Assembly: GCA_036743375.1 (NCBI GenBank)
Contig: DAINPP010000009.1
Coordinates: 1,030 to 65,029, forward strand
DNA: 64,000 nucleotides
DNA from: Thermotogota bacterium
GTDB lineage: Bacteria > Thermotogota > Thermotogae > MWEM01
Direction: 5' to 3'
Shown: piece by piece, positions 1 through 14,886 of the stretch
Layout: every line of letters begins with the position of its first letter
How positions within the stretch are numbered: position 1 is the stretch's first letter
Notes under the pieces: model-generated
What the model was told of the DNA's origin: nothing
Databases searched by the model: none
What the model saw: only the letters and a program-made list of their open reading frames with translations
Made by a program: the position numbers and the translations under genes

Positions 1-732
1 AACGCAAAGAAGGAAAAAGAGGAATTTTTTGCCTCCATCAGTCATGATCTGAAGACACCTATGCACAGTATCATCGGATTTGCCCATCTGTTGCGTGAAT
101 CGTTGAAAAATCCCGAAGACATAGATTGTGTCAACAGTATCCTCGACTCTTCAGACAATATGATGAAACTGATAAACAATATCCTCGATTTTTCAAAGGC
201 GGAAGCGGGCCGGTTGACAATAGTCAACCAAAAGGTCGATTTACGCCGCTTAATAGAAAAAAATTGCAAAAATACCGTTCAAAGGCTCAAAGGGAAACAG
301 TTAGAAATCAATTGTCTGATAGAAGAAGAGCTTCCCGAATTCATCGTGACCGATCCCCTGAGAGTGAATCAGATCCTCATGAATCTTCTGGATAACGCTG
401 TAAAGTTTACAGAGAAAGGGGTCATCGCATTAAAAGTGAGTAGCGAGGTAAAAGACTTCACAAGAACAGGGATTCGTTTCCTCGTAAAAGACACGGGAAT
501 CGGAATGACACAGGAAGAGCTAAAGGGCATCAGGAGTTATTTCTCACAGGCAAACAACGAGATAGAAAGAAAATACGGTGGCAGCGGGCTTGGTCTTTTC
601 ATCACTTCCAAAATTCTCGAATTGATGGACAGCAGGCTTGAAATCAGCAGCCGCAAGGGTGAAGGAAGCGAATTCTCCTTCATGCTCCCTCTCGCAGAGT
701 CTCAGGATTTCCCCTCAACAACGATCGTCTGA
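1..732 (+). CDS. Sensor histidine kinase, C-terminal part (HisKA + HATPase_c); 5' end outside window
   Basis: Frame is open from base 1 (NAKKEKEEFFASISHDLKTPMHSIIGF, H-box), followed by N-box NLLDNAVKFT, G1 DTGIGM and G2 GGSGLGL. No receiver domain before the stop. Confidence 0.93.
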   Translation, partial: NAKKEKEEFFASISHDLKTPMHSIIGFAHLLRESLKNPEDIDCVNSILDSSDNMMKLINNILDFSKAEAGRLTIVNQKVDLRRLIEKNCKNTVQRLKGKQLEINCLIEEELPEFIVTDPLRVNQILMNLLDNAVKFTEKGVIALKVSSEVKDFTRTGIRFLVKDTGIGMTQEELKGIRSYFSQANNEIERKYGGSGLGLFITSKILELMDSRLEISSRKGEGSEFSFMLPLAESQDFPSTTIV

Positions 733-992
733 CAATCAGCTCCCTTTAACCGGTATGGAAGGATACTCTGATATTCCGCTGAAGAATACCATCTGTTCAA
801 GGATGCCCTGTCGGGAAACCTAATAATGACACATCTTCCTTCTGTCATTTCCCCTTCAAGGGTCTCTGGCGATTCATCCACCGCGAGGTATTCCCCATTG
901 TATTTCATAAAAATATCATCACAGTTTTCAAGATATCTTTGATAGGCCGCTTCATCATGAATATTGATCCGTGCAACAAAATAAACACTCAT
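702..992 (-). CDS. DUF1330 family protein (dimeric alpha-beta barrel)
   Basis: 96 aa, pattern Y..YL.....IF.KY.GEYLA......LEG....R.VII.FP......WY.S.EYQ.I...R typical of DUF1330. Its 3' end overlaps the kinase convergently. Confidence 0.85.
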   Translation of the reverse strand: MSVYFVARINIHDEAAYQRYLENCDDIFMKYNGEYLAVDESPETLEGEMTEGRCVIIRFPDRASLNRWYSSAEYQSILPYRLKGADCQTIVVEGKS

Positions 993-1007: not shown

Positions 1008-1865
1008 TCAGTATCTTTCAGAAAGCCTTTCGTCAAGCCGCCACTGAGGAGGTTCTCCGTTATCACTCCAGTATTCGCTGATTTCCGAAATTCTATCATC
1101 TGAAAAGCTGAAAACCGACATAACGATAAAACGCGCAGTTTCCCCTTCATCATGAACATTGACGATAGAAATGAGTTTTTTGTCGGAAGGATATAGGGTC
1201 TCAACCTCGGCAAACCATCTACCGGGATATTTTCTGTTGAAGCAGATATATTTCTCAGTACCGATAAACACCTCTCGCGTATTGGGGAGGCGGATTATTG
1301 CGCTGTCCTCCATGACCTGATGAAGTCGATCAAATTCCGCATCGTTTATATATTGCCAGAATTGCCTCACAAGGCCTTCTCTTTTTACCCGGTCATCCGC
1401 CTCGAGTCTGAGTGTCTCATTCTCTCTCTTCAACTCATCGTATTCCTCTTCTGACACCATACCGCAATCTTTAAAGAACTGCACGACATCTTCCTCGTTC
1501 ACATCGTGTTTTGCACCCATCTGACTGATGATACTGATCCCAAGATTCCGAGCGTACTGACCGTCGATGATCTTCTCATCGACAAGTTTAAACAGGATTT
1601 CGGAGAATTCCTCCGCATCTCCCTTCAGGAGCTTCTCTATAGAATTGATAACCTGATGAAAATACTGTCTGTCAATCGGTACATAGGTAGAACTGTTGAA
1701 TTTTGCCTTCGATATGACATCAAAGGTAACGTCCTCACCAAGATGGTTGAGAATCTTTAATTTCTCACCGTTATTTATCATGTTGAAGATGTCCTTTAAA
1801 CGAATAAACTTCCTGGAATCGGAATCATACAGCTTTCTGTTTTTATATTTTTTTATGATCCTCAA
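1008..1865 (-). CDS. Fusion: PhaR-type (PHB/PHA accumulation regulator) DNA-binding domain + helical linker + SnoaL/NTF2-like domain
   Basis: N-terminus RIIKKYKNRKLYDSDSRKFIRLKDIFNMINNGEKLKIL...GEDVT matches the PhaR N-terminal DNA-binding motif. C-terminus LVRQFWQYIN...IRLPNTREVF...YPGRW...ISEYWSDNGEPPQWR is SnoaL-like. Likely start is TTG at 1865 behind the SD AGGGGGA; the ORF track starts at 1913. Confidence 0.72.
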   Translation of the reverse strand: MRIIKKYKNRKLYDSDSRKFIRLKDIFNMINNGEKLKILNHLGEDVTFDVISKAKFNSSTYVPIDRQYFHQVINSIEKLLKGDAEEFSEILFKLVDEKIIDGQYARNLGISIISQMGAKHDVNEEDVVQFFKDCGMVSEEEYDELKRENETLRLEADDRVKREGLVRQFWQYINDAEFDRLHQVMEDSAIIRLPNTREVFIGTEKYICFNRKYPGRWFAEVETLYPSDKKLISIVNVHDEGETARFIVMSVFSFSDDRISEISEYWSDNGEPPQWRLDERLSERY

Positions 1866-1920
1866 ATGTCTTCCCCCTACAAAATTCTGCCCCATTATAA
1901 CCTGTTTTATCATAGAATCA

Positions 1921-1938
1921 AACCCCCTTTCGGGGGTT
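1921..1938 (-). terminator. GC hairpin between the LolA-like gene and the PhaR-SnoaL gene
   Basis: Minus strand AACCCCC-GAAA-GGGGGTT followed by a short T-rich tail; possible weak terminator or processing stem. Confidence 0.45.
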
Positions 1939-1946
1939 CAAAACGA

Positions 1947-2702
1947 TTAAAATTTCAATTTTGGTCTTGAGATATTCTTTGGTGAGAAAAAGGAATCGTC
2001 CATTCCGAGATCCGTTTCTATTTCTTCAAAAGAGATGGTTGTCTTTCCATTCGTATTGTTGTCAATAGCCGTTATAACCCATGGAACCGTCTTTCCGTTT
2101 ACTTCATTGTATTCGGAAATCTGTATGACTTTTGCCTCTTGATCTTCCCAATTCAGGAAAGTAACCTGATCAGGCAACATTTTATCCTTTGTAATACTGA
2201 TCCTCATTGCCGAATAGGACAATTTTCGATCATCGTTCTTTATCTCTATCACATAAACGAGTGAATCCTGCTTGACGATGGTCGCTCGTTTGGCTACATC
2301 CGAAATCTTGTAAAGAAGGGATAATTCACCGTAGGTAAAATCAGAATCCGCAAACTTTTCGTCCTCGGAGCTGGCCTGCATCTTCTTAACGCTTCTGAGT
2401 GCCGGCATATACATATAAGTCTCTCCGAATCCCTTGGAAAGAAGGGTGATATTCTTTTTCTCCTTTGGCTTCAAGAATCTGATGATGCTGTATATCATAT
2501 TTTCATCTTTTTTATAGATGTAGAATACAAACTCGCCACTTTGTGTTCCGGAATCGTTCTTTTGAGATAAAGAAATCGTGGCCTTCACGTCGTTAAGATG
2601 TTCATAATTTCCCGCCACTTCGTCAAGGATTTCCTGTGCTGTTGCCCCAAAAAACACACCCGTCATCAAAACCATTAAAATCAAGATCATTCCTTTTTTC
2701 AT
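1947..2702 (-). CDS. Outer-membrane lipoprotein-sorting (LolA-like) protein
   Basis: Signal peptide, then motif YMYMPALRSVKKM......KFADSDFTYGEL typical of the LolA-like proteins encoded beside MMPL genes. Confidence 0.85.
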   Translation of the reverse strand: MKKGMILILMVLMTGVFFGATAQEILDEVAGNYEHLNDVKATISLSQKNDSGTQSGEFVFYIYKKDENMIYSIIRFLKPKEKKNITLLSKGFGETYMYMPALRSVKKMQASSEDEKFADSDFTYGELSLLYKISDVAKRATIVKQDSLVYVIEIKNDDRKLSYSAMRISITKDKMLPDQVTFLNWEDQEAKVIQISEYNEVNGKTVPWVITAIDNNTNGKTTISFEEIETDLGMDDSFFSPKNISRPKLKF

Positions 2703-2717
2703 AATTCCCTCCTGTTA

Positions 2718-5360
2718 TTAGCCCTGCTTTATTTTCAGGGGATTTTTCAATATGGAAAAGACTGCGCTGAGAAAGACCAATGAGACAAAGGCGGCTACAA
2801 GCATAGAGATACCCGTCAGAGAACCAAATTCTCTCACGATCCCTATATCGGAAAAGGATAAGGCAAAGAAGCCGAATGCAACGGATAAGGCATTGTAAAT
2901 AACCGCCTTACCACTCGTTCTGAGTGTTCTTCTAACCGCATCGACCGAAATACCCGTTTTTGAATATTCTACTCTGAACCGGTTGACAAAATGGATGGCG
3001 TAATCAATCCCCGCTCCTATTGCGATGGCTGCTATAGAGATGGTGGCCGTGTTAAGTGAAATACCGAGCAACCCCATGATCTCGAAATTCAGAATAACGG
3101 TAAGGGCACTTGGTACAACACCAATAAGCGCAATTTTCAACGATCTAAACTGCAGCAGGAAGAGAAGGAACACTATCGCTATCGTCATGAACATGGATTC
3201 GTACTGATCGTTGAACAGCATATCCTGAATATGCAGCAATATCTGTTCAGAACCCGTCTGTGAAAGACTGACTGAGTCCCCCTCTCCGGGAAGATAAACC
3301 ATTTCCTGTGAAACGGGTAGAAGCCCTGTGATCGTTGTCCGTGAAACCTCCGTTCCAAGCAATTCTGCAAAATACGCGATTTTCCACTCCCTTATCTTGA
3401 CAAAAAGCAAATTGTCAAGATCGTAAGCCAGATCTTCATAATAGTCCGTCGTCCCTTCCAATGCGGCCGACAAAAGATCATAATCATAGTCATCCATCCG
3501 CAGCATGCTGTCCATAACGGCTGTCCTGTTAGTCTCATCGAGGAGATAGTCACCGAAATCATTTGCCTGTGAAATGAGTTCATCAAGTTCCTTCTCATTT
3601 TCAGAGAACAGGGTACCAATTGGCAAATTGAGCGTATTTAAAAATTTCTCCGCATAATCCGCTTCCGAAACATCAACGTATTCGGAATAGAAAGCGGATA
3701 TTTCCGCACTGTCAGCAGCCGAAATGTTCACCGTTTTAAAGGAAGCCGGTTTTGAATCAAGTATCTTCTGTATATCGTTTATAATTACTTCATTGCTCAT
3801 TCTGGATTCAACATCGAAGGAAACTTGAATGATCCCCCTTGTAAAATCCCTGTTTATCAGCTGATAAATGGCATCGTTGTTCTCCATGAAAAACCAGAGA
3901 TTATCGGTCTCATCCCTCGAAGAGGGGACACATTCCGTTCCGCAGAATGACTTTGACAACTTGGCCATGATATCGGCGATCGAATACGTCTCGTTAACAC
4001 CTTCTATCTGTAGTATTTCCTGCTCAACACCGTACATCATCTGCATCGTTACCGGATTTTTAAAATCCCCCCTCACATCGATAAATATGGCTCCGTTCCC
4101 ACCAAAATTGTCACCGATATATTCCGCATCACGGATGATTCTTTCATCCGGATTAATCGAATTGATAATATCCATATCCGTTTTAAGGTTGATGGCAAAC
4201 GGTACCATAACCGCAACGATTCCGAGAAGAATGCCGATGACGAGATAGGGATTGAGGAGTTTTTCAGGTATCTTCAATCCGGAGGCCTCACTTCTTGTCT
4301 TCCGCGTTTTCATCGCTTCAAGAACACTCGGTACAAATATCAATGCAAGAAGATTGGCAAGCAATACACCGACGGCGGAAAAGATTCCGAGCGTACACAC
4401 CGGGTTGATATCGGCTGTAAGCAGTGACAGAAAACCGACGGCAGTGGTCAGTCCGCTGAGTATGACCGCTATCCCGACATCTTTTTCGGTATTTATGATC
4501 TTCTCCTCCTTAGTCCCCGTTTCCTCCGTATATTTGTTGATAATATGGATGGAATAAGCCGTACCGATACTGATCAGCACAACCGGTATGACCGAATTGG
4601 CAACGGTCAGTGGGATATTCAGAAGGGAAATGATCCCCATGGTCCAGACAACACTGATAGAAACGGTTAAAAGCGGTAAGAAGGCTCCAAGAAAACTCCT
4701 GAAACTGATCAGCAACGTGAAGAAGATGATGAGGATGGCGATGGGAATCAACTTGGTCAGATTTCTTTTCGCTATACTTTCTACGGCGTTGTTAACGGGT
4801 GAGACACCGTAATAATGAAAATGATCCCCATACTTTTTATCAAGTGCTTCCCTGATCGTTCCGTAAACATTTTTCGTGTCCATCCCCTCTTTGATCGAAA
4901 AGGTGATAAGGGAAGATTTACCATCATTGGAGATGAATTTTCCGACGATGGAATCATGCTGAAGGACATCCCGTACGGTGATTGACCCATTTGCAATTTC
5001 GTCTGAAAGCGTTATCACTTCTATCCCATAATCTGAAATATTGACAATGGGCATATTACTTAAAGAGGATACACTCTGTACATCGGTCCTTTCAGATAAA
5101 TATCCCGTTATTTCATTGATTTTTATCAGATCCGTATTATCCTCGATATCCATGCCGATCATTACAAGCGATCCAATACCAAACTCTTCTGAAAGATCCG
5201 TAAAATGGGATACAAACGGATCGGATTGTGGTGGATATTTGGTGATATCATCATCAAATTTAAGTCCTAACGATTTCCAGCCAAAAAACAGTGTCAGTAA
5301 TGCCACCGCAATAATGAGCATCACCCTGTACCTGACAATAAATTTACCAAGTCTTTCCAT
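2718..5360 (-). CDS. MMPL/RND family transporter
   Basis: 880 aa with two TM repeats; motifs SIGTAYSIHI, GLTTAVGFLSL, GAGIDYAIHF, NALSVAFGF. Acidic insertion in the second extracytoplasmic loop. Confidence 0.93.
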   Translation of the reverse strand: MERLGKFIVRYRVMLIIAVALLTLFFGWKSLGLKFDDDITKYPPQSDPFVSHFTDLSEEFGIGSLVMIGMDIEDNTDLIKINEITGYLSERTDVQSVSSLSNMPIVNISDYGIEVITLSDEIANGSITVRDVLQHDSIVGKFISNDGKSSLITFSIKEGMDTKNVYGTIREALDKKYGDHFHYYGVSPVNNAVESIAKRNLTKLIPIAILIIFFTLLISFRSFLGAFLPLLTVSISVVWTMGIISLLNIPLTVANSVIPVVLISIGTAYSIHIINKYTEETGTKEEKIINTEKDVGIAVILSGLTTAVGFLSLLTADINPVCTLGIFSAVGVLLANLLALIFVPSVLEAMKTRKTRSEASGLKIPEKLLNPYLVIGILLGIVAVMVPFAINLKTDMDIINSINPDERIIRDAEYIGDNFGGNGAIFIDVRGDFKNPVTMQMMYGVEQEILQIEGVNETYSIADIMAKLSKSFCGTECVPSSRDETDNLWFFMENNDAIYQLINRDFTRGIIQVSFDVESRMSNEVIINDIQKILDSKPASFKTVNISAADSAEISAFYSEYVDVSEADYAEKFLNTLNLPIGTLFSENEKELDELISQANDFGDYLLDETNRTAVMDSMLRMDDYDYDLLSAALEGTTDYYEDLAYDLDNLLFVKIREWKIAYFAELLGTEVSRTTITGLLPVSQEMVYLPGEGDSVSLSQTGSEQILLHIQDMLFNDQYESMFMTIAIVFLLFLLQFRSLKIALIGVVPSALTVILNFEIMGLLGISLNTATISIAAIAIGAGIDYAIHFVNRFRVEYSKTGISVDAVRRTLRTSGKAVIYNALSVAFGFFALSFSDIGIVREFGSLTGISMLVAAFVSLVFLSAVFSILKNPLKIKQG

Positions 5361-5383: not shown

Positions 5384-5400
5384 TTTACGCACTGCGTAAA
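5384..5400. promoter_or_regulatory. Palindromic operator 1 (TTTACGCA-C-TGCGTAAA)
   Basis: Perfect 8-bp inverted repeat around one central base, between the predicted -10 and the SD of the MMPL gene. Confidence 0.8.
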
Positions 5401-5408
5401 CATTGAGG

Positions 5409-5437
5409 ATACTACACCTGTTTTGTAACAGAAACAA
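5409..5437 (-). promoter_or_regulatory. Predicted sigma70-type promoter of the MMPL operon
   Basis: Minus strand TTGTTT (5437-5432), 17 nt spacer, TAGTAT (5414-5409) preceded by TG; lies exactly between the two palindromes. Confidence 0.5.
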
Positions 5438-5454
5438 GCCATCTCCTGTTAACA

Positions 5455-5471
5455 TTTACGCACTGCGTAAT
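5455..5471. promoter_or_regulatory. Palindromic operator 2 (TTTACGCA-C-TGCGTAAT)
   Basis: Second copy, 16/17 identical to operator 1, offset by 71 bp. Confidence 0.8.
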
Positions 5472-6566: not shown

Positions 6567-7400
6567 TTATTTAAACGATATCGATATTCCCTGAAGGAAA
6601 TATTTTCTGAATACCAGAAACAGGATGACCATTGGAAGGGTTTGGATAACAGAACCTGCCAGTACCGGTCCGAGCTGATTCGCGTACTCATGATTGAAGC
6701 TTGCCAGTAGCACCGAAAGGGGCATCTTATCATAATCCCGGATGAGTATCAGCGGCGTGAGAAAATTATCCCAGATGCCGATAAAGGTAAACAATCCCAC
6801 GATACTTGCCGTAGAACGGGTCAAAGGCAACATGATGGAAAAGATGATACGTATCTCGCCTGCCCCCTCCATCCTCGCCGCCTCTATATAATCGTTCGGA
6901 ATATTTCTGAAACTCTGCGTAAACATGAATACCCCCCATGCACCAAAAAGTGACGGAACGATAAGGCTGGCCAGGGTATTCAACATACCTAGCGACTTGA
7001 TGACGACAAAGGTAGGAATGGTAAACATGAAGCCCGGAAACAGCATCTGAAAGATCGTAAAATTCTTCAGAATCGTTCCTCCGAGGAATTTAAACTTGGC
7101 TATCGCATAGCCTACAAAGGAGGAAGTGAGTACGACACTGAACGTTACGGTCACGGAAATAATCACACTGTTCATAAGTGATCTGAAAAAATCTCTTTCC
7201 ATCTGATTGGTCGTATCAAAGATAAATTTAAAGTTATCCAATGTAAATTGGCTGGGCCACAGATTGGCATAGATCTCATTCTGAGGTTTGACCGAAGACA
7301 ATGTCAGCCAGATATAGGGATAAAGCCATACAAGTGCCAGAATGAGCATAATGATCTCAAACAGGGCAACACCTATCTTCTTTCGTGTCTTGTTCATCAT
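6567..7400 (-). CDS. Carbohydrate ABC transporter permease (MalG-like)
   Basis: EAA motif DYIEAARMEGA and 6 TM segments. Start at 7400 gives an ATGA overlap with the upstream permease stop. Confidence 0.92.
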   Translation of the reverse strand: MMNKTRKKIGVALFEIIMLILALVWLYPYIWLTLSSVKPQNEIYANLWPSQFTLDNFKFIFDTTNQMERDFFRSLMNSVIISVTVTFSVVLTSSFVGYAIAKFKFLGGTILKNFTIFQMLFPGFMFTIPTFVVIKSLGMLNTLASLIVPSLFGAWGVFMFTQSFRNIPNDYIEAARMEGAGEIRIIFSIMLPLTRSTASIVGLFTFIGIWDNFLTPLILIRDYDKMPLSVLLASFNHEYANQLGPVLAGSVIQTLPMVILFLVFRKYFLQGISISFK

Positions 7401-8290
7401 ACAAAGTTCACTTCCTTCTCTATGAGTTTTCTGACAAGGAATATACATCCAAAACTTATTGCTGCCGCAAAGATACTGATAACAGCCGCATATCCGGGTC
7501 CTGTAGAAGTGAATTTTCTGAACGCATTATCATAGATATACATCATAAACATATAAGTTCTCTTCATAGGACCCCCACCGGTTATCATATAAGGTTCCGT
7601 AAAAATGCCGAAAGACATCGTGATCTGCATGACAAGAACCATAACCATGGAAGGATTGAGAAGAGGCAGTGTTATCTTTGTGAATTGTTTGAATTTACCG
7701 GCACCATCAAGTTTTGCAGCCTCATAGAGCGATTTTGGAATAGCACCGAGTCCCGCGAGGAATATGAGTCCGTAATAACCGAGGAATTTCCAGGAGACCA
7801 TGAGGGCTATGGCAAGGATAGCGAGCTGTGGTCTGGTAAACCACGGGATTGTAAATCCGAACACCTGGTAAAGAAATCGGTTAAGCGGTCCACTTTCAGA
7901 CAGGAGCTTCTGGAAAACGATCGAGTAGCTGACCCCCGAAGAGATATTGGCGATAAGGAAGGAAAGGACGACAAAGGTCTTGAAATACTTCAGCCGGTTG
8001 AAGGCCATTCCAAGCAAAATGGATCCCAGCAGTGAAATCGGTATGAAATAAAGCATGAAGTTGAACGTATTTCCGAGAACGAGCCAGAACGTTTCATCCG
8101 TGATGACCCGGGTAAAATTATCAAAGCCTATGAATTTCGGTGGTGTTAAATAATTCCATTTCACGAACATCAGATATCCAAGCCAGCCAAAGGCGTAACA
8201 GAAGAATATCGACTGATGAACGATATACGGAGAAATAAGACCCCAGCCTTTTAAAGAATCTATTCTCTCAAGTTTACTCTTTCTTTTCGT
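7397..8290 (-). CDS. Carbohydrate ABC transporter permease (MalF-like); probable start at ACG 8290
   Basis: EAA motif SLYEAAKLDGA. The frame stays open 40 codons upstream of ATG 8170 (TKRKSKLERIDSLKGWGLISPYIV..., first TM helix) to an ACG located 7-8 nt after the SD AAGGAGG. Confidence 0.85.
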   Translation of the reverse strand, partial: TKRKSKLERIDSLKGWGLISPYIVHQSIFFCYAFGWLGYLMFVKWNYLTPPKFIGFDNFTRVITDETFWLVLGNTFNFMLYFIPISLLGSILLGMAFNRLKYFKTFVVLSFLIANISSGVSYSIVFQKLLSESGPLNRFLYQVFGFTIPWFTRPQLAILAIALMVSWKFLGYYGLIFLAGLGAIPKSLYEAAKLDGAGKFKQFTKITLPLLNPSMVMVLVMQITMSFGIFTEPYMITGGGPMKRTYMFMMYIYDNAFRKFTSTGPGYAAVISIFAAAISFGCIFLVRKLIEKEVNFV

Positions 8291-8348: not shown

Positions 8349-9605
8349 TTAAAACAGCTCTCTGTTTATCTTCTTAATGGCGTTGTTGATAATCTGATCG
8401 GCCGGCATATCCACAAGATAGATCGGTTCGGTAAGATCCGTTGTCATGACGTCCTGCACTTCCGTTGTCTTTGAAATCAGTGCCGGAGGAACACTGTTCG
8501 GAACAGCCTCAGCATAGGCTTTCATCATCGGATTGGCCTCCAAAATTGGCTGGAACAGTTCATTGGTCGTCAGATCGGCTCTAACGGGCGGAAGACCTGT
8601 TATATCAAACCACAGTTCATCATGTTTCGGATCTGAATAGACCCATTTCATAAATTCCCATGCCGCTTCTTTATGCCTTGAATCTTTAAACATGACCATC
8701 CCTTTTGTATCGGCAAATGTCTTTATCGCCTGATCTTCCGGATAGCTATCCGGAACGGGCGGGTATGCCAGGATGATTTCAGAGGGAAAGATCTCCGGGA
8801 AAAGATTTTCAGCAGAAGGAATTTCCCATGGCCCCATCAGCTGACCCGCCAATCGGCCTGTGTAAAGTGGATTGTCCATCATGTCCATTGAAGTCCAGCC
8901 ATTGTCAAACAACTTCTGTCCATATTCAACAACTGCGTTACCGGCTTCATCGTTGAAGACCGCCTTGTTCTTTTTTGTGTCGATATACGGATGACCGTTA
9001 CTCGCCGCATAATAAAGCGTGATAAAATCATACCATCTGTCCCACCAGTTTTTCCCCTTCAGGTATTCGACAACGTAGACCTCTTTCGGCTTACAGATTT
9101 TTTCTGCCAGTTCATAAACTTCGCTGTAGGTTCTCGGAGGTGTGTCAAATCCCGCTTCGGCGAGCATGTCCTTTCTCCACCAGAAAAGCATCGGATTTGA
9201 ATAAATCGGAAAGACATATGACTTTCCCGAAAATTCCCAACCTTTGACGGCCTCTTCCATCCTTCTCGCGGCAAGGAGCTGATCAAAATCACTGAAATCG
9301 CTGAGCGGCACAAGCTGATCCGCTTCTATCAGCTGAGCGGCAAATCCACTGAATATGTTGGTACAGAGATCGGGGGCCTGTCCCGTAACGATGGCCGTTA
9401 ATATTGCCTCTTCAGAACTTCCCGATGCAGGAATGGTCTTCCATTCTATCTCTATCTCAGGATGAACACCTTTCCATTCTTCCAGAATTGCCTTCCAGAA
9501 TTGTTCCTGATACATGTTCGGGGCCGTCCACAACACTAATTTCTCCGCCAGTACCGGCGTTAACAACATTACCAAGAGAATAAGAATCACAAGATATTTC
9601 TTCAC
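8349..9605 (-). CDS. Sugar ABC transporter solute-binding protein (family 1)
   Basis: Signal peptide MKKYLVILILLVMLLTPVLA, family-1 SBP features (AIVTGQAPD, YVFPIYSNPMLFWWRKD, AAWEFMKW). GTG start at 9605 behind GGAGG. Confidence 0.92.
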   Translation of the reverse strand: MKKYLVILILLVMLLTPVLAEKLVLWTAPNMYQEQFWKAILEEWKGVHPEIEIEWKTIPASGSSEEAILTAIVTGQAPDLCTNIFSGFAAQLIEADQLVPLSDFSDFDQLLAARRMEEAVKGWEFSGKSYVFPIYSNPMLFWWRKDMLAEAGFDTPPRTYSEVYELAEKICKPKEVYVVEYLKGKNWWDRWYDFITLYYAASNGHPYIDTKKNKAVFNDEAGNAVVEYGQKLFDNGWTSMDMMDNPLYTGRLAGQLMGPWEIPSAENLFPEIFPSEIILAYPPVPDSYPEDQAIKTFADTKGMVMFKDSRHKEAAWEFMKWVYSDPKHDELWFDITGLPPVRADLTTNELFQPILEANPMMKAYAEAVPNSVPPALISKTTEVQDVMTTDLTEPIYLVDMPADQIINNAIKKINRELF

Positions 9606-9630
9606 CCGCAACACCTCCATATGTGTTAAG

Positions 9631-10629
9631 CTAAAGACTGCTGTCTCTTTTTATAAAACTCGTGTGCAATGAGATCTTTATCGGATGTACATTCTCATCG
9701 TACAGGAGTTGCCTGATACGCTCAACCGCGAGATCACCCATCTCATATCTGTAAACCTTCACAGTAGACAGGGAAGGGGACATCGTCGATGCAAACACGG
9801 CATCATCAAAACCCGCCAGGGCTATTTCATCCGGGACCTTATAACCCGCCTTATGAAAAAAAGTCATAATCTTCTTTGCCATACTGTCATTTCCGGCAAA
9901 AATACAATCCGGCATCCCCTCATTCTTAAAGATCTGCGGAAGCAGTAGATTAAAATCATCGTTGATATCATCACATTGAAAGGTCCTCGGGAAGAACCCA
10001 TATTGCTTCATGGCATCACGATACCCTTCATATCGGTCCTTGAATCCGTAATGCAGAAGTGGTCCATGGATATGAAAGATTCTGCTGTATCCCTCTTCTA
10101 TCAGATGGGTAACACAACTAACGGCCCCATCATATCCATTTGATACCACACTGTCCACACTGCACCCCTTCAGATGCTGATCGACGAGTATAAAAGTCTT
10201 TTCACATGCCCGGAATAACAGAACATCTTCTTCGGTCACATCCCCACCTATCAGAAGAAATGCATCATAGTCGGAACTGATCTGCTTTCTCTGGTCTTCA
10301 AGCATGAGTATGTTAACGGTCATATTCAACTTGCCGGCCTTTTCCTTTATCCCTCTGAAAACCGTCGTATAAAAACCATCTCCAAGAAAATCCCTGCCGT
10401 CATTTTTCTCATAGTTCAGTATTCTTTCACTGAATACCGCCCCAATTCTGAAATTTTTTCTCCTTGCAAGGCCTGAAGCGGTTTTTGACGGGGTATATTC
10501 AAGTTCCTCTATCACCTTCTGTACAATCTTTCTCGTCTCTTCGGAAACATATCCCTTTCCGCTGATTACCCTCGAAACGGTGGCGGTAGATACGCCGGCA
10601 AGTCTGGCTACATCATTTATACTTGACAT
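9631..10629 (-). CDS. LacI family transcriptional regulator
   Basis: N-terminal HTH SINDVARLAGVSTATVSRVI, hinge YTPSKTASGL, C-terminal VPDEIALAGFDD. Confidence 0.95.
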   Translation of the reverse strand: MSSINDVARLAGVSTATVSRVISGKGYVSEETRKIVQKVIEELEYTPSKTASGLARRKNFRIGAVFSERILNYEKNDGRDFLGDGFYTTVFRGIKEKAGKLNMTVNILMLEDQRKQISSDYDAFLLIGGDVTEEDVLLFRACEKTFILVDQHLKGCSVDSVVSNGYDGAVSCVTHLIEEGYSRIFHIHGPLLHYGFKDRYEGYRDAMKQYGFFPRTFQCDDINDDFNLLLPQIFKNEGMPDCIFAGNDSMAKKIMTFFHKAGYKVPDEIALAGFDDAVFASTMSPSLSTVKVYRYEMGDLAVERIRQLLYDENVHPIKISLHTSFIKRDSSL

Positions 10630-10658: not shown

Positions 10659-10945
10659 CAATTATACACAAATAAAAAAGGCTATTCTATTCTTTTTTCA
10701 ACGATTTATCATAAATTATAACTGATTATAACCATTTATATAAATATTTCTTCTTATTTGGGAATATTATGAATGATATAAGCTTCTTTCTTTATATTGC
10801 ATCTTATTTCTTTGATATTCATCAATATTCTTCCAAAAAATAAGTTTTTCGAATCTAATGAACGATATCGAATCAATTTCTGACTATTTTGTTGGATATG
10901 AGTGTTTGCCGAAATCATAGGCAGAGTTATATCATGTTTATGTTG

Positions 10946-10959
10946 TGAAAGCGTTTACA
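10946..10959. promoter_or_regulatory. LacI-type operator TGAAAGCGTTTACA
   Basis: Same motif as 10645-10658 (reverse complement differs at one position), about 30 bp upstream of the divergent 10990 gene. Confidence 0.78.
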
Positions 10960-10989
10960 TATTTTGGCTATATTAAGGAGGAATTTGAA

Positions 10990-12342
10990 ATGAAGAAGAA
11001 TCGTATTGCTATCGTTTTATTCATCATTATTGCGGTCTGTCTGACTTTTGCGGAGACAGTCGAACTCCGGGTTAATGCGGAAACACTCACCGGTGATCCG
11101 GTTGCATACCGAATCTATATGTACGAAGCACTCGAACTGATCCCCGAAGATTTTGATGCCAATTGGGATTCCCTCAGGGTCTTTGATGCGGAGGAAAATG
11201 AAATTCCCTATCAGATCGACGATCTTGACGGAAACGGCAAACTGTCAGCACATGATATGCTCAGTTTCTTCATGACAGGAACGGCAAAAATGGTTATCAG
11301 TGATGATCTCTCATTGGATAGACCTGAATACGACGCAGTTCTCAGCGTAAACGAAGTAGATGGAGAATTCATCGTTACTGGCGGAGAACTCGATGCTGAA
11401 GTAAAGATCGACAATCATGGATTTGCAAATTACGTTAATTACAGGAATTTTGAAGAAGCCGTATACACCGAACTCGGAATCATGAGAATAGCCGGTTGGA
11501 AAGGCAGCACATTCTGGGCCGATGGGCAGCTTGGGAACAAACATGAAGAAAAGACTTCCTATAATTTTAAGGTGAATGAAATGGAATTCGTCAATTCCGG
11601 TCCCGTTGGTGCCACTTTTGTTTCCGATCTCGAATCAGAGACATTTATAGGCGTTCATCAGATCCTTATCACACAGGTCATGGCAAATGGCGAATGTTTT
11701 GTGGAATCCAATATCATCTTTGAAACCTACACGGATCTCATGAAATTACAGGAGATGTCCACAAAGGCGCTCACAAGCGTAGATATGGAGACACTCAAGC
11801 ATATCATGCCCCTGCCGAGAAGACTTGTATGGGCGGAACAGCTCAATTCAAGCTCATTTGATTACTGGAACGACAGAGAGGCTATAGAAATCGTGAATGG
11901 ACAGCCTTATGTCTGTTTTGATGCACTCGATGCCATGAAACCACTCTGGTGGGGAGCAACCTACATCTACTCCTCCCCGGAAAGCTGGAGGGGAAATTAC
12001 TCTGAAGATCTCGGTGCCTGTGCTTATTCCATTTCCGTTGAAAAGCCGCTTGTATATGCCAATTTCAACGATTTTGTCATGGGCAACACATGGGTATACG
12101 AAAGTAGAGAGTTCAGAGATGGTCTCTTCAGGTGGATGCCCGCGGAATTCAATGCCTTTGAGACAACCGAGGGAAACGTTTCAACGGATACCGTTGACTG
12201 TGTCGCTCATTTCTTCCCGGGAGATAACGTCGTATTCAGAAAGGTGTACGGATTCACCGATGGTTTCGCCAACACAGCGGATGCCATAGGATATCTTGAA
12301 GCAAGGGCAGTGGAGATCGAATCGATCACACTTGCGGAATAA
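10990..12342 (+). CDS. Secreted protein of unknown function (N-terminal segment resembles DUF4861-type proteins)
   Basis: SD AAGGAGG then ATG 10990; signal peptide ending CLTFA; motif LRVFDAEENEIPYQIDDLDGNG (DxDGNG Ca-binding-like); aromatic-rich beta-type C-terminus. Confidence 0.75.
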   Translation: MKKNRIAIVLFIIIAVCLTFAETVELRVNAETLTGDPVAYRIYMYEALELIPEDFDANWDSLRVFDAEENEIPYQIDDLDGNGKLSAHDMLSFFMTGTAKMVISDDLSLDRPEYDAVLSVNEVDGEFIVTGGELDAEVKIDNHGFANYVNYRNFEEAVYTELGIMRIAGWKGSTFWADGQLGNKHEEKTSYNFKVNEMEFVNSGPVGATFVSDLESETFIGVHQILITQVMANGECFVESNIIFETYTDLMKLQEMSTKALTSVDMETLKHIMPLPRRLVWAEQLNSSSFDYWNDREAIEIVNGQPYVCFDALDAMKPLWWGATYIYSSPESWRGNYSEDLGACAYSISVEKPLVYANFNDFVMGNTWVYESREFRDGLFRWMPAEFNAFETTEGNVSTDTVDCVAHFFPGDNVVFRKVYGFTDGFANTADAIGYLEARAVEIESITLAE

Positions 12343-12585: not shown

Positions 12586-14886
12586 ATGAAAATCAAGAAA
12601 ATTCTGATTCTGACACTGACAGTTCTTCTGACAACGGCCGCTTTTTCAGCTGTTTTTCCTCAAAGGGAATCCCATCTCATGTTCCTCAGAAAAGAAATGT
12701 CCGTCGAAGGCAACCTGAAGACAGGTTATATCATCTATGCAGATAAAAGGGAAGGCAGATATGTGCATACCGACGCCGGGAGTGAAGGAATCTCATGTGT
12801 CGATGATACGGCCAGAGCGGGTATTTATTTCCTGAACATGTATGAAAACACAAGGGAAAAAGACAGTCATGCCGCACAGAGATACCGGGAACTCTTCCTT
12901 GAAACCCTTGATTTCTGCGATGCATTCAGAACCCGAACAGGGGATTATTATAATTTCATCTTTGAAAACGGTGAAATCAACAAAAGGGGAATCACAAGCA
13001 GAACCTCTGCAAACTGGTGGGCCTTGAGGGCTTTATGGCTACTGTCACAGTCTTTAACCGTCATTGAAGATTCCGAAGATTTCAACACGGAGAAGATTTA
13101 TGATGAGGCGGAGCAGACTGCAACCCTGTTTGTTCAGGAGCTTGATGCGACCGGGCTGATCAGGGGATACGCCGATCTTTCCGCGCTTTATGTCATATCA
13201 CTTGCCAACCTCTACGAATTTTCAGGAGAATCAAAATGGCTTGAGTTGATCCGTCAGGTCAGCGATGGTCTGCTCGGTAAAAGAGCCCATTTTATCTTCG
13301 ATGGGATCATCGACGAGGGAACGGAGAAATTTATTTTTCACAGCTGGGGAAGCAGGCAGGTTCAAGCTCTCGCAATGGCATTTACAGCCACACACGACGA
13401 CAAATACCTTGAGGCGGCAAAAGACATGGCCGATTCTCTGTACACTCACATGATCAACCTCGGGCCTTTCTATGATTATGATACAGAAAATTTCAACCTG
13501 TTTTCACAGATCGCCTATGGAACGGAAGCCGCTGTGACCTCGCTTTATCAACTGTATCAGATCACAGGGGATGAAGCGTATGCCTGGCTTCTCGCACTCA
13601 ACGCGGGGTTTTTCAGCGGGAATAATCAGCTGCAAAGGGCCATGACAGGAGAAAATGGGGAAGGCTATGACGGACTCGAGAAGGTCTTCATCAACACGAA
13701 TTCCGGTGCGGAATCCACCATCTCCTATCTACTTTCCATGTCTCTTGTAGACAGATTACCCGAAACCATTCGAAGATTTGCTGAAATGAAGCCGGTTCAT
13801 CAATCCGAACCGCTCCTGATAGAAGCGGAAAACATGGATTCAGGATTATCGAGTTGCGATACCGAGAACATAAACGGATTCAACGGTGTATCGGGCCGTT
13901 CATTCAAGCTGAAGGAAACCTTTACACTTAATCGGGGTACCTATGATATCTTCCTGTTTGGAACAGGGCTGAAGGATTCTGAGATCAAATTCTATCTGGG
14001 TAAAGAAACCATAGGAAAAAATATCCTGTCCGATACGGATCATTATCTCGGCAGAATAAAAAACACAGCGGATGAGGAAGTCAGAATCATTTTTTCAGGT
14101 AAATCGGAAGAAAAAATCTTTCTCAATCAGATCTTATGCCTGCCCGTCATCGAATATCAGGTGTTCAATGTTAACGGCATTAATTACCTTGCCGCATTCA
14201 ACACCTCTGATGAAGAGATGGAATTTAACTATCAGCCGATTGAAAAAAAGGGGTATCTCCTCTCGGAAGCCAATTTCGATATTGATGAAAAAGAGACTGC
14301 TGAGCAATCCGTCTATGAAGTCGGTTCAACCGAAGTCCATTCCGGATATATCGTTCTTAAACTGAATGCCTTCATGGATAACAACGGCATAGGCATGCCG
14401 GTTAATCCCGGAAATTACGATAATCTCGGAGGAAAGGCGGGGGCTTATTATCCGGAGGAAAAAATTCGCGGACTGCTTACAGGTGGCTTCCTGTATCCTG
14501 ACGGTATTCCTTTCAGGATCTTACTGGAAGAAAACGACAATCTCATCGCCGGTGGACAACGCTTGATGATAAACGAGACCGGAACGACACTTTATGTTTT
14601 CGGAAGCTGCGATCACGGTAGTTTTAACGGTGATCTTGAAATAGGCTATTCTGATGGTGAAAGAGAATATACCTCATTGAGTTTCCCTGACTGGTGTTCT
14701 GAGATCCGGGATGAAGATTCTATCGCTCTTCAGGTGCCATACAGATACGATTCCAGCGACCTTGAGGAGTGGATAGCGCCAAAGATCGCGATATGCAAAA
14801 TCCCACTGAAGGGAAAGAAGATCGAATCGATCACAATACCTGAAATTCCGACAATGCATCTTTTCGGAATAACACTCGGAAAATAA
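12586..14886 (+). CDS. Secreted multidomain putative glycoside hydrolase: six-hairpin (alpha/alpha)6-like domain + CBM-like + C-terminal beta domain
   Basis: Signal peptide; motifs EGISCVDDTARA, WWALRALW, SWGSRQ, QIAYG, GYDGL, NSGAESTISYLLS; then LLIEAEN (CBM6/35-like start) and DNNG...NYDNLG...YYPEE...GIPF...PDW, reminiscent of alpha-mannosidase accessory domains. Confidence 0.65.
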   Translation: MKIKKILILTLTVLLTTAAFSAVFPQRESHLMFLRKEMSVEGNLKTGYIIYADKREGRYVHTDAGSEGISCVDDTARAGIYFLNMYENTREKDSHAAQRYRELFLETLDFCDAFRTRTGDYYNFIFENGEINKRGITSRTSANWWALRALWLLSQSLTVIEDSEDFNTEKIYDEAEQTATLFVQELDATGLIRGYADLSALYVISLANLYEFSGESKWLELIRQVSDGLLGKRAHFIFDGIIDEGTEKFIFHSWGSRQVQALAMAFTATHDDKYLEAAKDMADSLYTHMINLGPFYDYDTENFNLFSQIAYGTEAAVTSLYQLYQITGDEAYAWLLALNAGFFSGNNQLQRAMTGENGEGYDGLEKVFINTNSGAESTISYLLSMSLVDRLPETIRRFAEMKPVHQSEPLLIEAENMDSGLSSCDTENINGFNGVSGRSFKLKETFTLNRGTYDIFLFGTGLKDSEIKFYLGKETIGKNILSDTDHYLGRIKNTADEEVRIIFSGKSEEKIFLNQILCLPVIEYQVFNVNGINYLAAFNTSDEEMEFNYQPIEKKGYLLSEANFDIDEKETAEQSVYEVGSTEVHSGYIVLKLNAFMDNNGIGMPVNPGNYDNLGGKAGAYYPEEKIRGLLTGGFLYPDGIPFRILLEENDNLIAGGQRLMINETGTTLYVFGSCDHGSFNGDLEIGYSDGEREYTSLSFPDWCSEIRDEDSIALQVPYRYDSSDLEEWIAPKIAICKIPLKGKKIESITIPEIPTMHLFGITLGK

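Follow-up and report, generated by a model that had tools for sequence, protein, structure and literature searches.

The window analysed here, 64,000 nucleotides of DNA from a Thermotogota bacterium (contig DAINPP010000009.1 of GenBank assembly GCA_036743375.1), contains a gene for a putative regulator in which a DNA-binding domain of the PhaR type is followed by a SnoaL/NTF2-like domain. PhaR has been studied almost solely as a sensor of polyhydroxyalkanoate (PHA) granules, and the locus raises the question of what such a protein controls and what the additional domain is for. An earlier note on this DNA, made from the letters alone, had offered two explanations, a new one-component regulator with a ligand pocket or a recent fusion of two genes. 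The regulator belongs to an undescribed PhaR-like group encoded beside a lipid-type exporter operon, not beside bioplastic-storage genes; here the PhaR-type domain heads a separate, exporter-linked family. The fusion alone is of modest novelty; the conserved module of regulator, operators and exporter is a clean and directly testable finding.

Domain architecture of the fused protein

The gene appears in the window as a 301-aa open reading frame (ORF) at 1008..1913 (−), whose translation contains the strings IKKYKNRKLYD, GEDVT and VSEEEYDELKRENETL. The same 301-aa product is encoded by four contigs from three independent sources (ENA, Logan, JGI), and the in-frame junction of the two parts is therefore not an assembly artefact. 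The earlier note had read the ORF as one polypeptide with a PhaR-type DNA-binding domain and a complete SnoaL/NTF2-like domain, and Pfam, AlphaFold2 (AF2) and Foldseek all bear this out.

The DNA-binding domain, PHB_acc_N (PF07879), lies at 1713..1859 (−; aa 19-67 in the 301-aa numbering). The profile search proposed for it gave a significant match (47.9 bits, Pfam cut-off 25), and AF2 models it with a predicted local distance difference test (pLDDT) of 84-89 and a β-β-β-α-β-α topology. A Foldseek search of the N-module against the PDB returned no significant structural match (best E 0.3), in agreement with the statement that PhaR is placed in no well-characterised transcription-factor family (PMC12849132). 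The helical middle with its C-terminal zipper-like helix (1389..1712 (−), aa 68-175; alignments A3 and A4) matches no Pfam family and is common to short regulators of ~160 aa; its AF2 helices have pLDDT values of 57-81. For the final helix, weak BMFP/UbiK-type coiled-coil matches were obtained in 14 of the 23 family members, and a coiled coil is plausible here. The earlier description of this part as phasin-regulator-like holds for the DNA-binding domain and, through weak similarity, for the zipper, but does not extend to the whole protein. Indeed, the PhaR equivalog TIGR01848 (NCBIfam) reached 38.6 bits against a cut-off of 109.45, with only positions 1-51 of 107 of the model matching; neither PF05233 (PHB_acc) nor a phasin domain was matched at E ≤ 1 by the window protein or by any of the 23 family members; and no pha gene was present in any examined locus (whole genomes were not searched).

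The C-terminal domain (1011..1388 (−), aa 176-301) belongs to the 4LMI/3EN8 subfamily of NTF2/SnoaL_2-like domains and carries the motifs LPNTxE, YPGRW and EYW..PPxWR. Here the profile check was only partly successful. SnoaL_2 (PF12680) covered nearly its full model (aa 182-277, model positions 1-101 of 102; E 8.5e-5) at 23.5 bits, below the cut-off of 27, but the fold is clear and close relatives pass the cut-off (P0005 with 30.9 bits, P0010 with 38.1 bits). The AF2 model that had been called for (aa 170-283, pLDDT 80-92) has the NTF2/SnoaL/ketosteroid isomerase (KSI) fold, i.e. an α+β cone of three helices packed on a curved β-sheet. With Foldseek, 397 matches in the PDB were obtained at E ≤ 1e-3, and those heading the list are all NTF2, SnoaL, KSI or limonene epoxide hydrolase (LEH) folds (4lmi_A with E 6e-9; 4kvh with a TM score of 0.88 and a root-mean-square deviation of 1.7 Å). 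The SnoaL assignment can be regarded as secure, resting on the modelled fold and on close relatives and not on the Pfam score of the window protein itself. Furthermore, the family profile finds 4LMI (E 2.5e-17) and 3EN8 (E 1.4e-12) in the PDB, and the window domain has the hallmark pattern of this subfamily, W…(P)NT.E…YPG.W…EYW…PP.WR, with 17 of the 17 hallmark residues kept (positions at least 85% conserved among 40 stand-alone members). A DNA-binding output domain and a putative small-molecule input domain are combined in one chain, which is a one-component architecture.

Just before the SnoaL part, the earlier note had suspected the relic of a Shine-Dalgarno (SD) sequence and start codon. 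The string in question, CTC GAG GCG GAT GAC CGG GTA AAA AGA GAA, is indeed present at ~1406-1377 on the minus strand, but GTA is no start codon and no in-frame start lies at a workable distance: the sole nearby ATG is out of frame and is followed by a stop after three codons, and the next in-frame GTG is ~27 nt from GAGG and thus too distant. The GAGG appears to be a chance occurrence only. No stop, frameshift or start codon was found at the junction in the window sequence.

A conserved exporter operon with a pair of candidate operators

Two genes precede the regulator gene on the same strand. The first (2718..5360 (−)) encodes an 880-aa resistance-nodulation-division (RND) transporter of the MMPL/HAE3 type (Pfam MMPL, 177 bits) with similarity to sterol-sensing domains; with the HAE3 model TIGR00921 it scores 278 bits, which is under the cut-off of that model. 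The second (1947..2702 (−)) encodes a LolA_like/TP_0789-like protein of 251 aa (PF17131, 109 bits) with an N-terminal signal-peptide-like segment. All three cluster proteins are 60-70% identical to proteins from Petrotogaceae or from metagenome-assembled genomes (MAGs) labelled 'Thermotogae', which makes an origin from the Thermotogota probable; the window contains no marker gene. The order RND transporter, LolA-like protein, PhaR-like protein, all on the same strand, recurs in the loci of four other fused proteins (group B: P0002, P0153, P0154 and P0003) and of the short forms P0004 and P0155, and also in Thermosipho, Mesoaciditoga and Brevinema. The family of stand-alone ~160-aa regulators occurs in Thermotogota and in one spirochaete (Brevinema). 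The PhaR-like gene is the sole conserved DNA-binding gene of the cluster, and its linkage to the RND and LolA-like genes is kept, together with the operators described below, down to ~30% protein identity and across phyla.

Two identical perfect palindromes, TTACGCA-G-TGCGTAA, occupy the interval that separates the start of the RND gene from the terminator of the GH130 gene before it. Candidate operator O2 (5385..5399) ends 24 nt before the ATG of the RND gene, just upstream of its SD sequence GGAGGA (5370-5365). Candidate operator O1 (5456..5470) lies 71 bp upstream of O2 and abuts a −35-like TTAACA (5452-5447), which belongs to the putative core promoter region between the two sites (5409..5452 (−)); a conserved TGTTACAAA box (5430-5422) and a second candidate −10 sequence, TAGTAT (5414-5409), follow. 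In the alignment of seven loci (A6), the layout is O1, the −35-like TTAACA, a conserved TGTTACATA box or second −10-like box, O2, SD sequence and start codon.

The palindrome consensus is TTAYGC-N3-GCRTAA (TTAYGCNNNGCRTAA). In the 64 kb of the window, TTAYGCNNNGCRTAA has 3 matches with at most one mismatch (0.31 expected), a number reached by none of 100 shuffles. The third of them, TTACTCGCCGCATAA with one mismatch at 8998-9012, is located inside the coding sequence of a solute-binding protein (8349-9620 (−)) and is probably due to chance. In the other lineages, the motif is found exactly twice, just 5' of the RND gene and nowhere else in the fetched DNA. This holds for short-form loci (L008/L024, L021/L022), group-B loci (L019/L023, L020), Thermosipho (L013, L014, L017) and Mesoaciditoga (L025, L027). 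In Brevinema (L032), an exact copy and a degenerate one are found next to each other at this position. The two sites are 70-71 bp apart in the Petrotogales-like lineages and 66-67 bp apart in Thermosipho; in Mesoaciditoga, the distance is 83 or 18 bp.

Among 22 loci in which a PhaR-like gene stands apart from the RND and LolA-like genes, 21 lack TTAYGCNNNGCRTAA. The exception is a WOR-3 MAG (L048, 5976-6003), in which a single TTACGCAATGCGTAA immediately follows a TATAAT box and is separated by 4 nt from the GTG of the regulator gene itself. This site is likely an autoregulatory operator of a distant PhaR-like gene without an RND neighbour, and it points to the PHB_acc_N gene, not the pump, as the partner of the motif. 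At the own promoter of the window regulator, no operator was detected. The earlier note had singled out the palindrome at 5384/5455 as a binding target; this proposal is strongly backed by the conservation across lineages, and targeting of the palindromes by the regulator appears well supported.

Start codon and promoter of the regulator gene

The annotated, mechanically called start, ATG at 1913, is probably wrong. It lies upstream of a conserved −10 box (1899-1894), which would then fall inside the first 16 codons, and for this reason the coding sequence is most likely 1008..1865 (−), beginning with TTG (1865-1863), ending with the stop codon at 1010-1008 and encoding 285 aa. The TTG at 1865 is also the most likely start in view of the homologues, which all start at (M/L)RIIKKYKNRKLYD, with TTG as the codon in most lineages and GTG in Thermosipho. 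An SD-like sequence, AGGGGGAAG (1878-1870), is present 4-7 nt 5' of the TTG. Note that the start called for P0002 (MIFREYDL…) shows the same problem as ATG 1913.

The predicted promoter of the regulator gene (1894..1921 (−)) consists of a −35 sequence TTGATT (1921-1916), a 16-nt spacer and the −10 sequence TATAAT (1899-1894) and matches the consensus at 10 of 12 positions. At the equivalent position, AGTTATAAT is invariant in six other loci (L001, L004, L008, L019, L020, L021). A terminator-like hairpin (1918..1941 (−); core CCCCC-GAAA-GGGGG at 1936-1923; −15.6 kcal/mol, z −3.3) is located directly 3' of the LolA-like stop codon. Six other loci have an equally placed hairpin of another sequence and similar strength, followed by AGTTATAAT; in five other lineages, the values range from −14.6 to −18 kcal/mol. 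The regulator gene possesses a predicted promoter separate from that of the exporter genes, with a predicted terminator in front of it. No RNA family of Rfam was found across the whole window.

Distribution and history of the fusion

A word-indexed search of 5.8 billion proteins revealed two relatives of the window protein, both full-length fusions (P0002 with 50% and P0003 with 45% identity). With HMMER, 1.84 billion representatives were searched exhaustively, and the 602 matches comprised one fused representative, short proteins matching aa 17-171 only (e.g., P0004 with 68% and P0008 with 37% identity), hundreds of C-domain-only proteins of ~125 aa, and proteins in which the C-domain is joined to other domains. 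Two further fusions (P0153, P0154) were recovered with an N-module profile, together with the ~160-aa family of Thermosipho, Fervidobacterium and uncultured Thermotogota, the members of which are named 'PhaR' by annotation transfer. The four further fused proteins align end to end with the window protein. The gene is thus confirmed as a real, very rare PhaR-type/NTF2-like fusion, and the proposed check for the same architecture in other genomes had a positive outcome. Among the 1.84 billion representatives, the NTF2-like domain has been added in only two lineages, that of the window and the Petrotogaceae group.

Homologues are either fused or lack the C-domain, and in no case were the two parts found as two adjacent genes, the arrangement that would have spoken for a split gene. 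P0004 and P0008 were considered as N-terminal halves of such a gene and dismissed, as their contigs show complete genes followed by unrelated ones. P0005, the closest stand-alone NTF2-like homologue, was dismissed as a C-terminal half, as it sits among unrelated chemotaxis and kinase genes; no relationship of its contig to the window lineage was found beyond generic kinase domains. No copy or remnant of the C-domain was detected by tblastn near the short forms, and an apparent alignment in the DNA past the stop codon of P0002 contained nothing meaningful.

The 4LMI/3EN8-type domain occurs elsewhere fused to GNAT (in both orders), Nudix, glyoxalase, Ham1, AAA_18, AHSA1/START-like, PRiA4_ORF3 and ROK kinase domains, and also duplicated in tandem (fusion examples include P0040, P0052, P0063, P0090, P0094 and P0059). 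Relatives of 270-350 aa were considered as SnoaL-bearing sigma factors and rejected, as they are fusions with GNAT, Nudix, glyoxalase, PRiA4_ORF3, Ham1, AAA_18 or AHSA1. Among the 150 best matches, PHB_acc_N is the only DNA-binding partner of the subfamily.

In the tree of the N-modules, the closest neighbours of the window protein are two short forms, P0004 and P0155 (bootstrap 89), and group B is a separate clade. The C-domain of the window protein is 51-54% identical to stand-alone P0005 and 24-35% identical to the group-B C-domains. In the C-domain tree group B is monophyletic (96%), and none of 300 bootstraps united all fused C-domains in one clade. The linker from 'ENE' to 'FW' has 18 residues in both fused lineages. 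Within group B, the ratio of non-synonymous to synonymous substitutions (dN/dS) amounts to 0.21-0.34 in the C-domain, compared with 0.06-0.12 in the N-module, which implies that the fused domain is functional there and evolves two to four times faster than the N-module. Between P0003 and P0153, substitutions at synonymous sites have reached saturation; the group-B fusion is therefore old. As a general statement, the 'recent fusion' of the earlier note fails: in the Petrotogaceae group the fusion is old and under purifying selection.

These data bear on a far-reaching scenario in which the regulator family captured the NTF2-like subfamily twice and independently, the subfamily being a dedicated sensor of hydrophobic envelope metabolites within a lipid- or cargo-monitoring system that extends from Thermotogota to Brevinema. 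Two captures are supported by the N-module tree (bootstrap 89) and by the lack of all-fused C-domain monophyly in the 300 bootstraps. They are weakened by the identical junction length in both lineages and by the long branch of group B, which makes long-branch effects possible. Taken as a whole, this scenario seems rather doubtful. If true, it would mean that a PhaR-derived system watches the cargo of an RND/LolA-like export route to the outer envelope ('toga').

Possible function of the fused regulator

We propose that the protein is a one-component repressor of the RND/LolA-like operon that has gained a small-molecule-binding domain, and assign to this reading a probability of about 0.5. It builds on what was observed: a fused architecture that recurs, a shared gene order, paired operator sites kept across lineages, a promoter of the regulator's own, and a fused domain held under purifying selection. 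The PhaR-type N-terminal domain would bind O1 and O2, which bracket the RND/LolA-like promoter, as a dimer, probably assembled further via the zipper helix. With O1 abutting the −35 sequence and O2 at or just downstream of the transcription start, their occupancy would block transcription. The regulator itself would be made from its constitutive-looking promoter behind the terminator, with a weak TTG start. The ancestral form of ~160 aa presumably ended after the zipper, and in the window lineage the NTF2/SnoaL-like domain would have been added C-terminally, joined in the model via a continuous helix and providing a hydrophobic, cone-shaped cavity. This domain would most probably bind a small hydrophobic molecule, either the substrate of the exporter or an envelope-stress compound, and binding would change the DNA affinity or the oligomeric state, so that the exporter is de-repressed. 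That the C-domain senses a ligand and relieves repression is suggested by the precedent of σJ of Mycobacterium tuberculosis, whose C-terminal SnoaL_2 domain modulates promoter DNA binding (PMC5766207). A link of MMPL and LolA-like proteins with very hydrophobic cargo has been described (PMC6304351). The small-molecule enzymes to which the subfamily is fused elsewhere (GNAT, Nudix, glyoxalase, kinases) fit a small-molecule-binding module, and such hints suggest that 4LMI/3EN8-type domains in general may recognise a small molecule.

Several points weigh against this reading. The short regulators operate without the C-domain, which is therefore not needed for the basic circuit, and the helix at the junction is modelled with low confidence (pLDDT 48-59 at residues 151-170). 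The group-B C-domains keep 6-8 of the 17 hallmark residues (9-11 lost); invariant E214 is lost in the group, and P230 in three of its four proteins. Conserved ligand chemistry accounts for this loss no better, and perhaps less well, than a structural role does. The only solved members of the subfamily, 4LMI and 3EN8, are structural-genomics proteins with no known function. The published PhaR motif of Ralstonia eutropha, YTKNTGCRNYGCANMAR, matches O2 with 2 mismatches, and with 7 matches in the window (6.0 expected) it is too degenerate to discriminate; since it is not significant here on its own, the operator argument rests on the phylogenetic footprint.

The main rival keeps the same repressor and operators and takes the NTF2-like domain as an oligomerisation or architectural module, with a dimer of dimers bridging O1 and O2 over 71 bp for tighter repression. 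NTF2-like domains often dimerise, and the fixed spacing of 70-71 bp in the Petrotogales-like lineages would suit such a bridge. So would the 18-residue linker of both fused lineages, which is expected if helical register matters, and group B, in which the hydrophobic residues that define the fold (W186, F268, I275, Y281) are kept and most polar hallmarks are lost while purifying selection persists. However, the window copy retains all 17 hallmarks, including the polar T212, E214, E280 and R292, for which a pure scaffold has no need, and the short forms share the two-operator layout without having the domain. On balance we consider bridging clearly less probable than ligand sensing, and still the most serious competitor. 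The polar residues of the window copy could alternatively belong to an enzyme (for example an isomerase, hydrolase or cyclase) whose substrate is a hydrophobic compound that the exporter handles, possibly together with the DUF1330 protein encoded downstream; a bifunctional 'Rosetta-stone' fusion of this kind would serve co-expression or form a trigger enzyme. The other fusion partners of the subfamily are enzymes (GNAT, Nudix, glyoxalase, Ham1, kinases), relatives among NTF2-like proteins include epoxide hydrolases, ketosteroid isomerases and BaiE, and the DUF1330 gene is coupled to the regulator gene in this lineage only. Nevertheless, a catalytic role is unlikely, as the subfamily is without known catalytic activity, group B has lost the putative active-site residues and kept the fusion, P0005 has no DUF1330 neighbour, and a low-abundance regulator initiated at TTG is a poor vehicle for an enzyme.

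Two further explanations can be regarded as effectively excluded. A canonical PhaR controlling phasin and PHA-granule genes, next to which the RND operon and the palindromes would be coincidental, could invoke the PHB_acc_N domain and the public labels of the Thermosipho homologues ('PhaR' or 'regulator of phasin expression'). It is made highly improbable by the failure of TIGR01848, the lack of PHB_acc (PF05233) and phasin domains and of pha genes in the examined loci, and by the conservation of the RND/LolA-like linkage and operators to ~30% identity across phyla. Even less credit is due to an artefact, whether through faulty sequencing or assembly or through a read-through that joined two genes very recently. 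The window C-domain resembles stand-alone proteins (54% identity) more than it does the C-domains of the other fusions (24-35%), which could be read this way, but identical copies of the ORF come from three independent sources (four contigs), other lineages encode four more fused proteins, and the junction shows neither stop nor frameshift nor start codon. We infer that the regulator binds the palindromes and represses the exporter genes, with ligand sensing by the C-domain as the preferred addition.

Comparison with known systems

Like PhaR of Cupriavidus necator/R. eutropha and Paracoccus denitrificans, the window protein has PHB_acc_N followed by a helical C-terminal part. PhaR operators are palindromic, with one base as the spacer and a GC-rich centre, TGCR-N-YGCA, and are located beside the −35 box and at the transcription start site (PMC12849132). 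The operators of the window type have the centre YGC-N3-GCR, and their placement mirrors that of the R. eutropha PhaR sites (PMC12849132). In contrast to PhaR, the window protein lacks a C-terminal domain of the PHB_acc or phasin type, stays far under the cut-off of the equivalog model and carries the extra NTF2-like domain; its predicted target is an RND/LolA-like export operon and not phasin genes, and its own promoter has no detected operator. By these features, it is not a PhaR in the sense of the family.

Close counterparts are the short PhaR-like proteins of 158-166 aa (P0004, P0155, P0008, P0157, P0166 and others), which have an orthologous N-module with 37-71% identity. The short forms of Thermosipho, Fervidobacterium and Thermotogota MAGs share the neighbourhood, the operator pair, the separate promoter and a non-ATG start with the window gene. 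Unlike the window protein, they terminate just past the zipper helix and lack the NTF2-like domain; the names 'PhaR' or 'phasin regulator' were given to them by transfer only. Two still smaller proteins, P0099 (135 aa) and P0109 (130 aa), are made up almost entirely of two tandem PHB_acc_N domains and may be single-chain 'pseudo-dimers' of the PhaR DNA-binding domain.

A C-terminal SnoaL_2 domain that modulates promoter binding in a one-component-like manner is known from the extracytoplasmic function (ECF) sigma factors ECF41 and ECF56 (M. tuberculosis σJ, Streptomyces SigG1) (PMC5766207; PMC7730460). In those proteins, however, the DNA-binding module is σ2/σ4 instead of PHB_acc_N, and the SnoaL_2 domain is of a different subfamily. 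The PDB profile search with the C-domain gave no significant match to the SnoaL_2 domain of a sigma factor, none of the longer relatives checked is a sigma factor, and the window protein has no Sigma70 domains; TIGR02960 and NF006089 match it weakly and in the SnoaL part only. The C-domain of the window protein shares its subfamily and the motifs P.T.E, YPG.W and EYW..PP.WR with 4LMI (Kribbella flavida) and 3EN8 (Burkholderia xenovorans), but these two are stand-alone proteins of ~130 aa.

Pump repressors of the TetR/MarR type (AcrR, TtgR, MmpR5) are encoded locally, bind palindromic operators at the pump promoter and are expected to be released by a substrate of the pump. The logic of the window system is the same, with unrelated DNA-binding and ligand-binding folds.

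Our full-text searches brought up no account of a PHB_acc_N protein with linkage to an RND cluster, none of the present Thermotogota proteins and none of PhaR joined to SnoaL, nor any study of the short forms; the fused proteins are annotated as 'hypothetical' in the sources. The operator is sharply defined, occurs across phyla and is easy to test. The fused variant is a natural experiment, as the same repressor exists with and without an NTF2-like domain. It could yield the first function for the 4LMI/3EN8 subfamily and would give a handle on the cargo of a widespread RND/LolA-like pair in bacteria with unusual outer envelopes. Moreover, SnoaL-type domains would be extended as modules of transcription factors past the ECF sigma factors.

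Neighbouring genes and variation at related loci

The regulator gene is followed, 15 nt after its stop codon, by a gene for a DUF1330 protein of 96 aa (702..992 (−); Pfam 94 bits) with its own SD sequence. Downstream of the regulator this gene is found in the window lineage only and is absent in all other lineages; it is probably co-transcribed with the regulator gene and is not a conserved part of the system. Its 3' end overlaps by 31 nt with the 3' end of a convergent histidine-kinase gene (61-732 (+)).

The Thermosipho loci (L013-L017) have an extra conserved gene for a 410-aa protein without a Pfam match between the LolA-like and the regulator gene (L014, 3528-4760), and two small ORFs of ~80 aa each, one of them DUF5320, 3' of the regulator gene. 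In a Petrotogaceae MAG (L019), the LolA-like gene (7152-8000) is called 42 aa short (209 aa), and coding seems to resume past an in-frame TAA; this may be either a pseudogene or an error of long-read assembly. The same locus has an insertion sequence element (HTH_Tnp_1 and rve; 8905-10052) just 3' of the fused regulator gene, as compared with the sister locus L020.

Farther along the window, two adjacent ORFs of 465 aa (10945-12342 (+)) and 766 aa (12586-14886 (+)) have no Pfam match at E ≤ 1e-5. They are located amid genes for sugar utilisation (GH130, GH127, GH2, ABC sugar transporters) and hybrid PAS histidine kinases.

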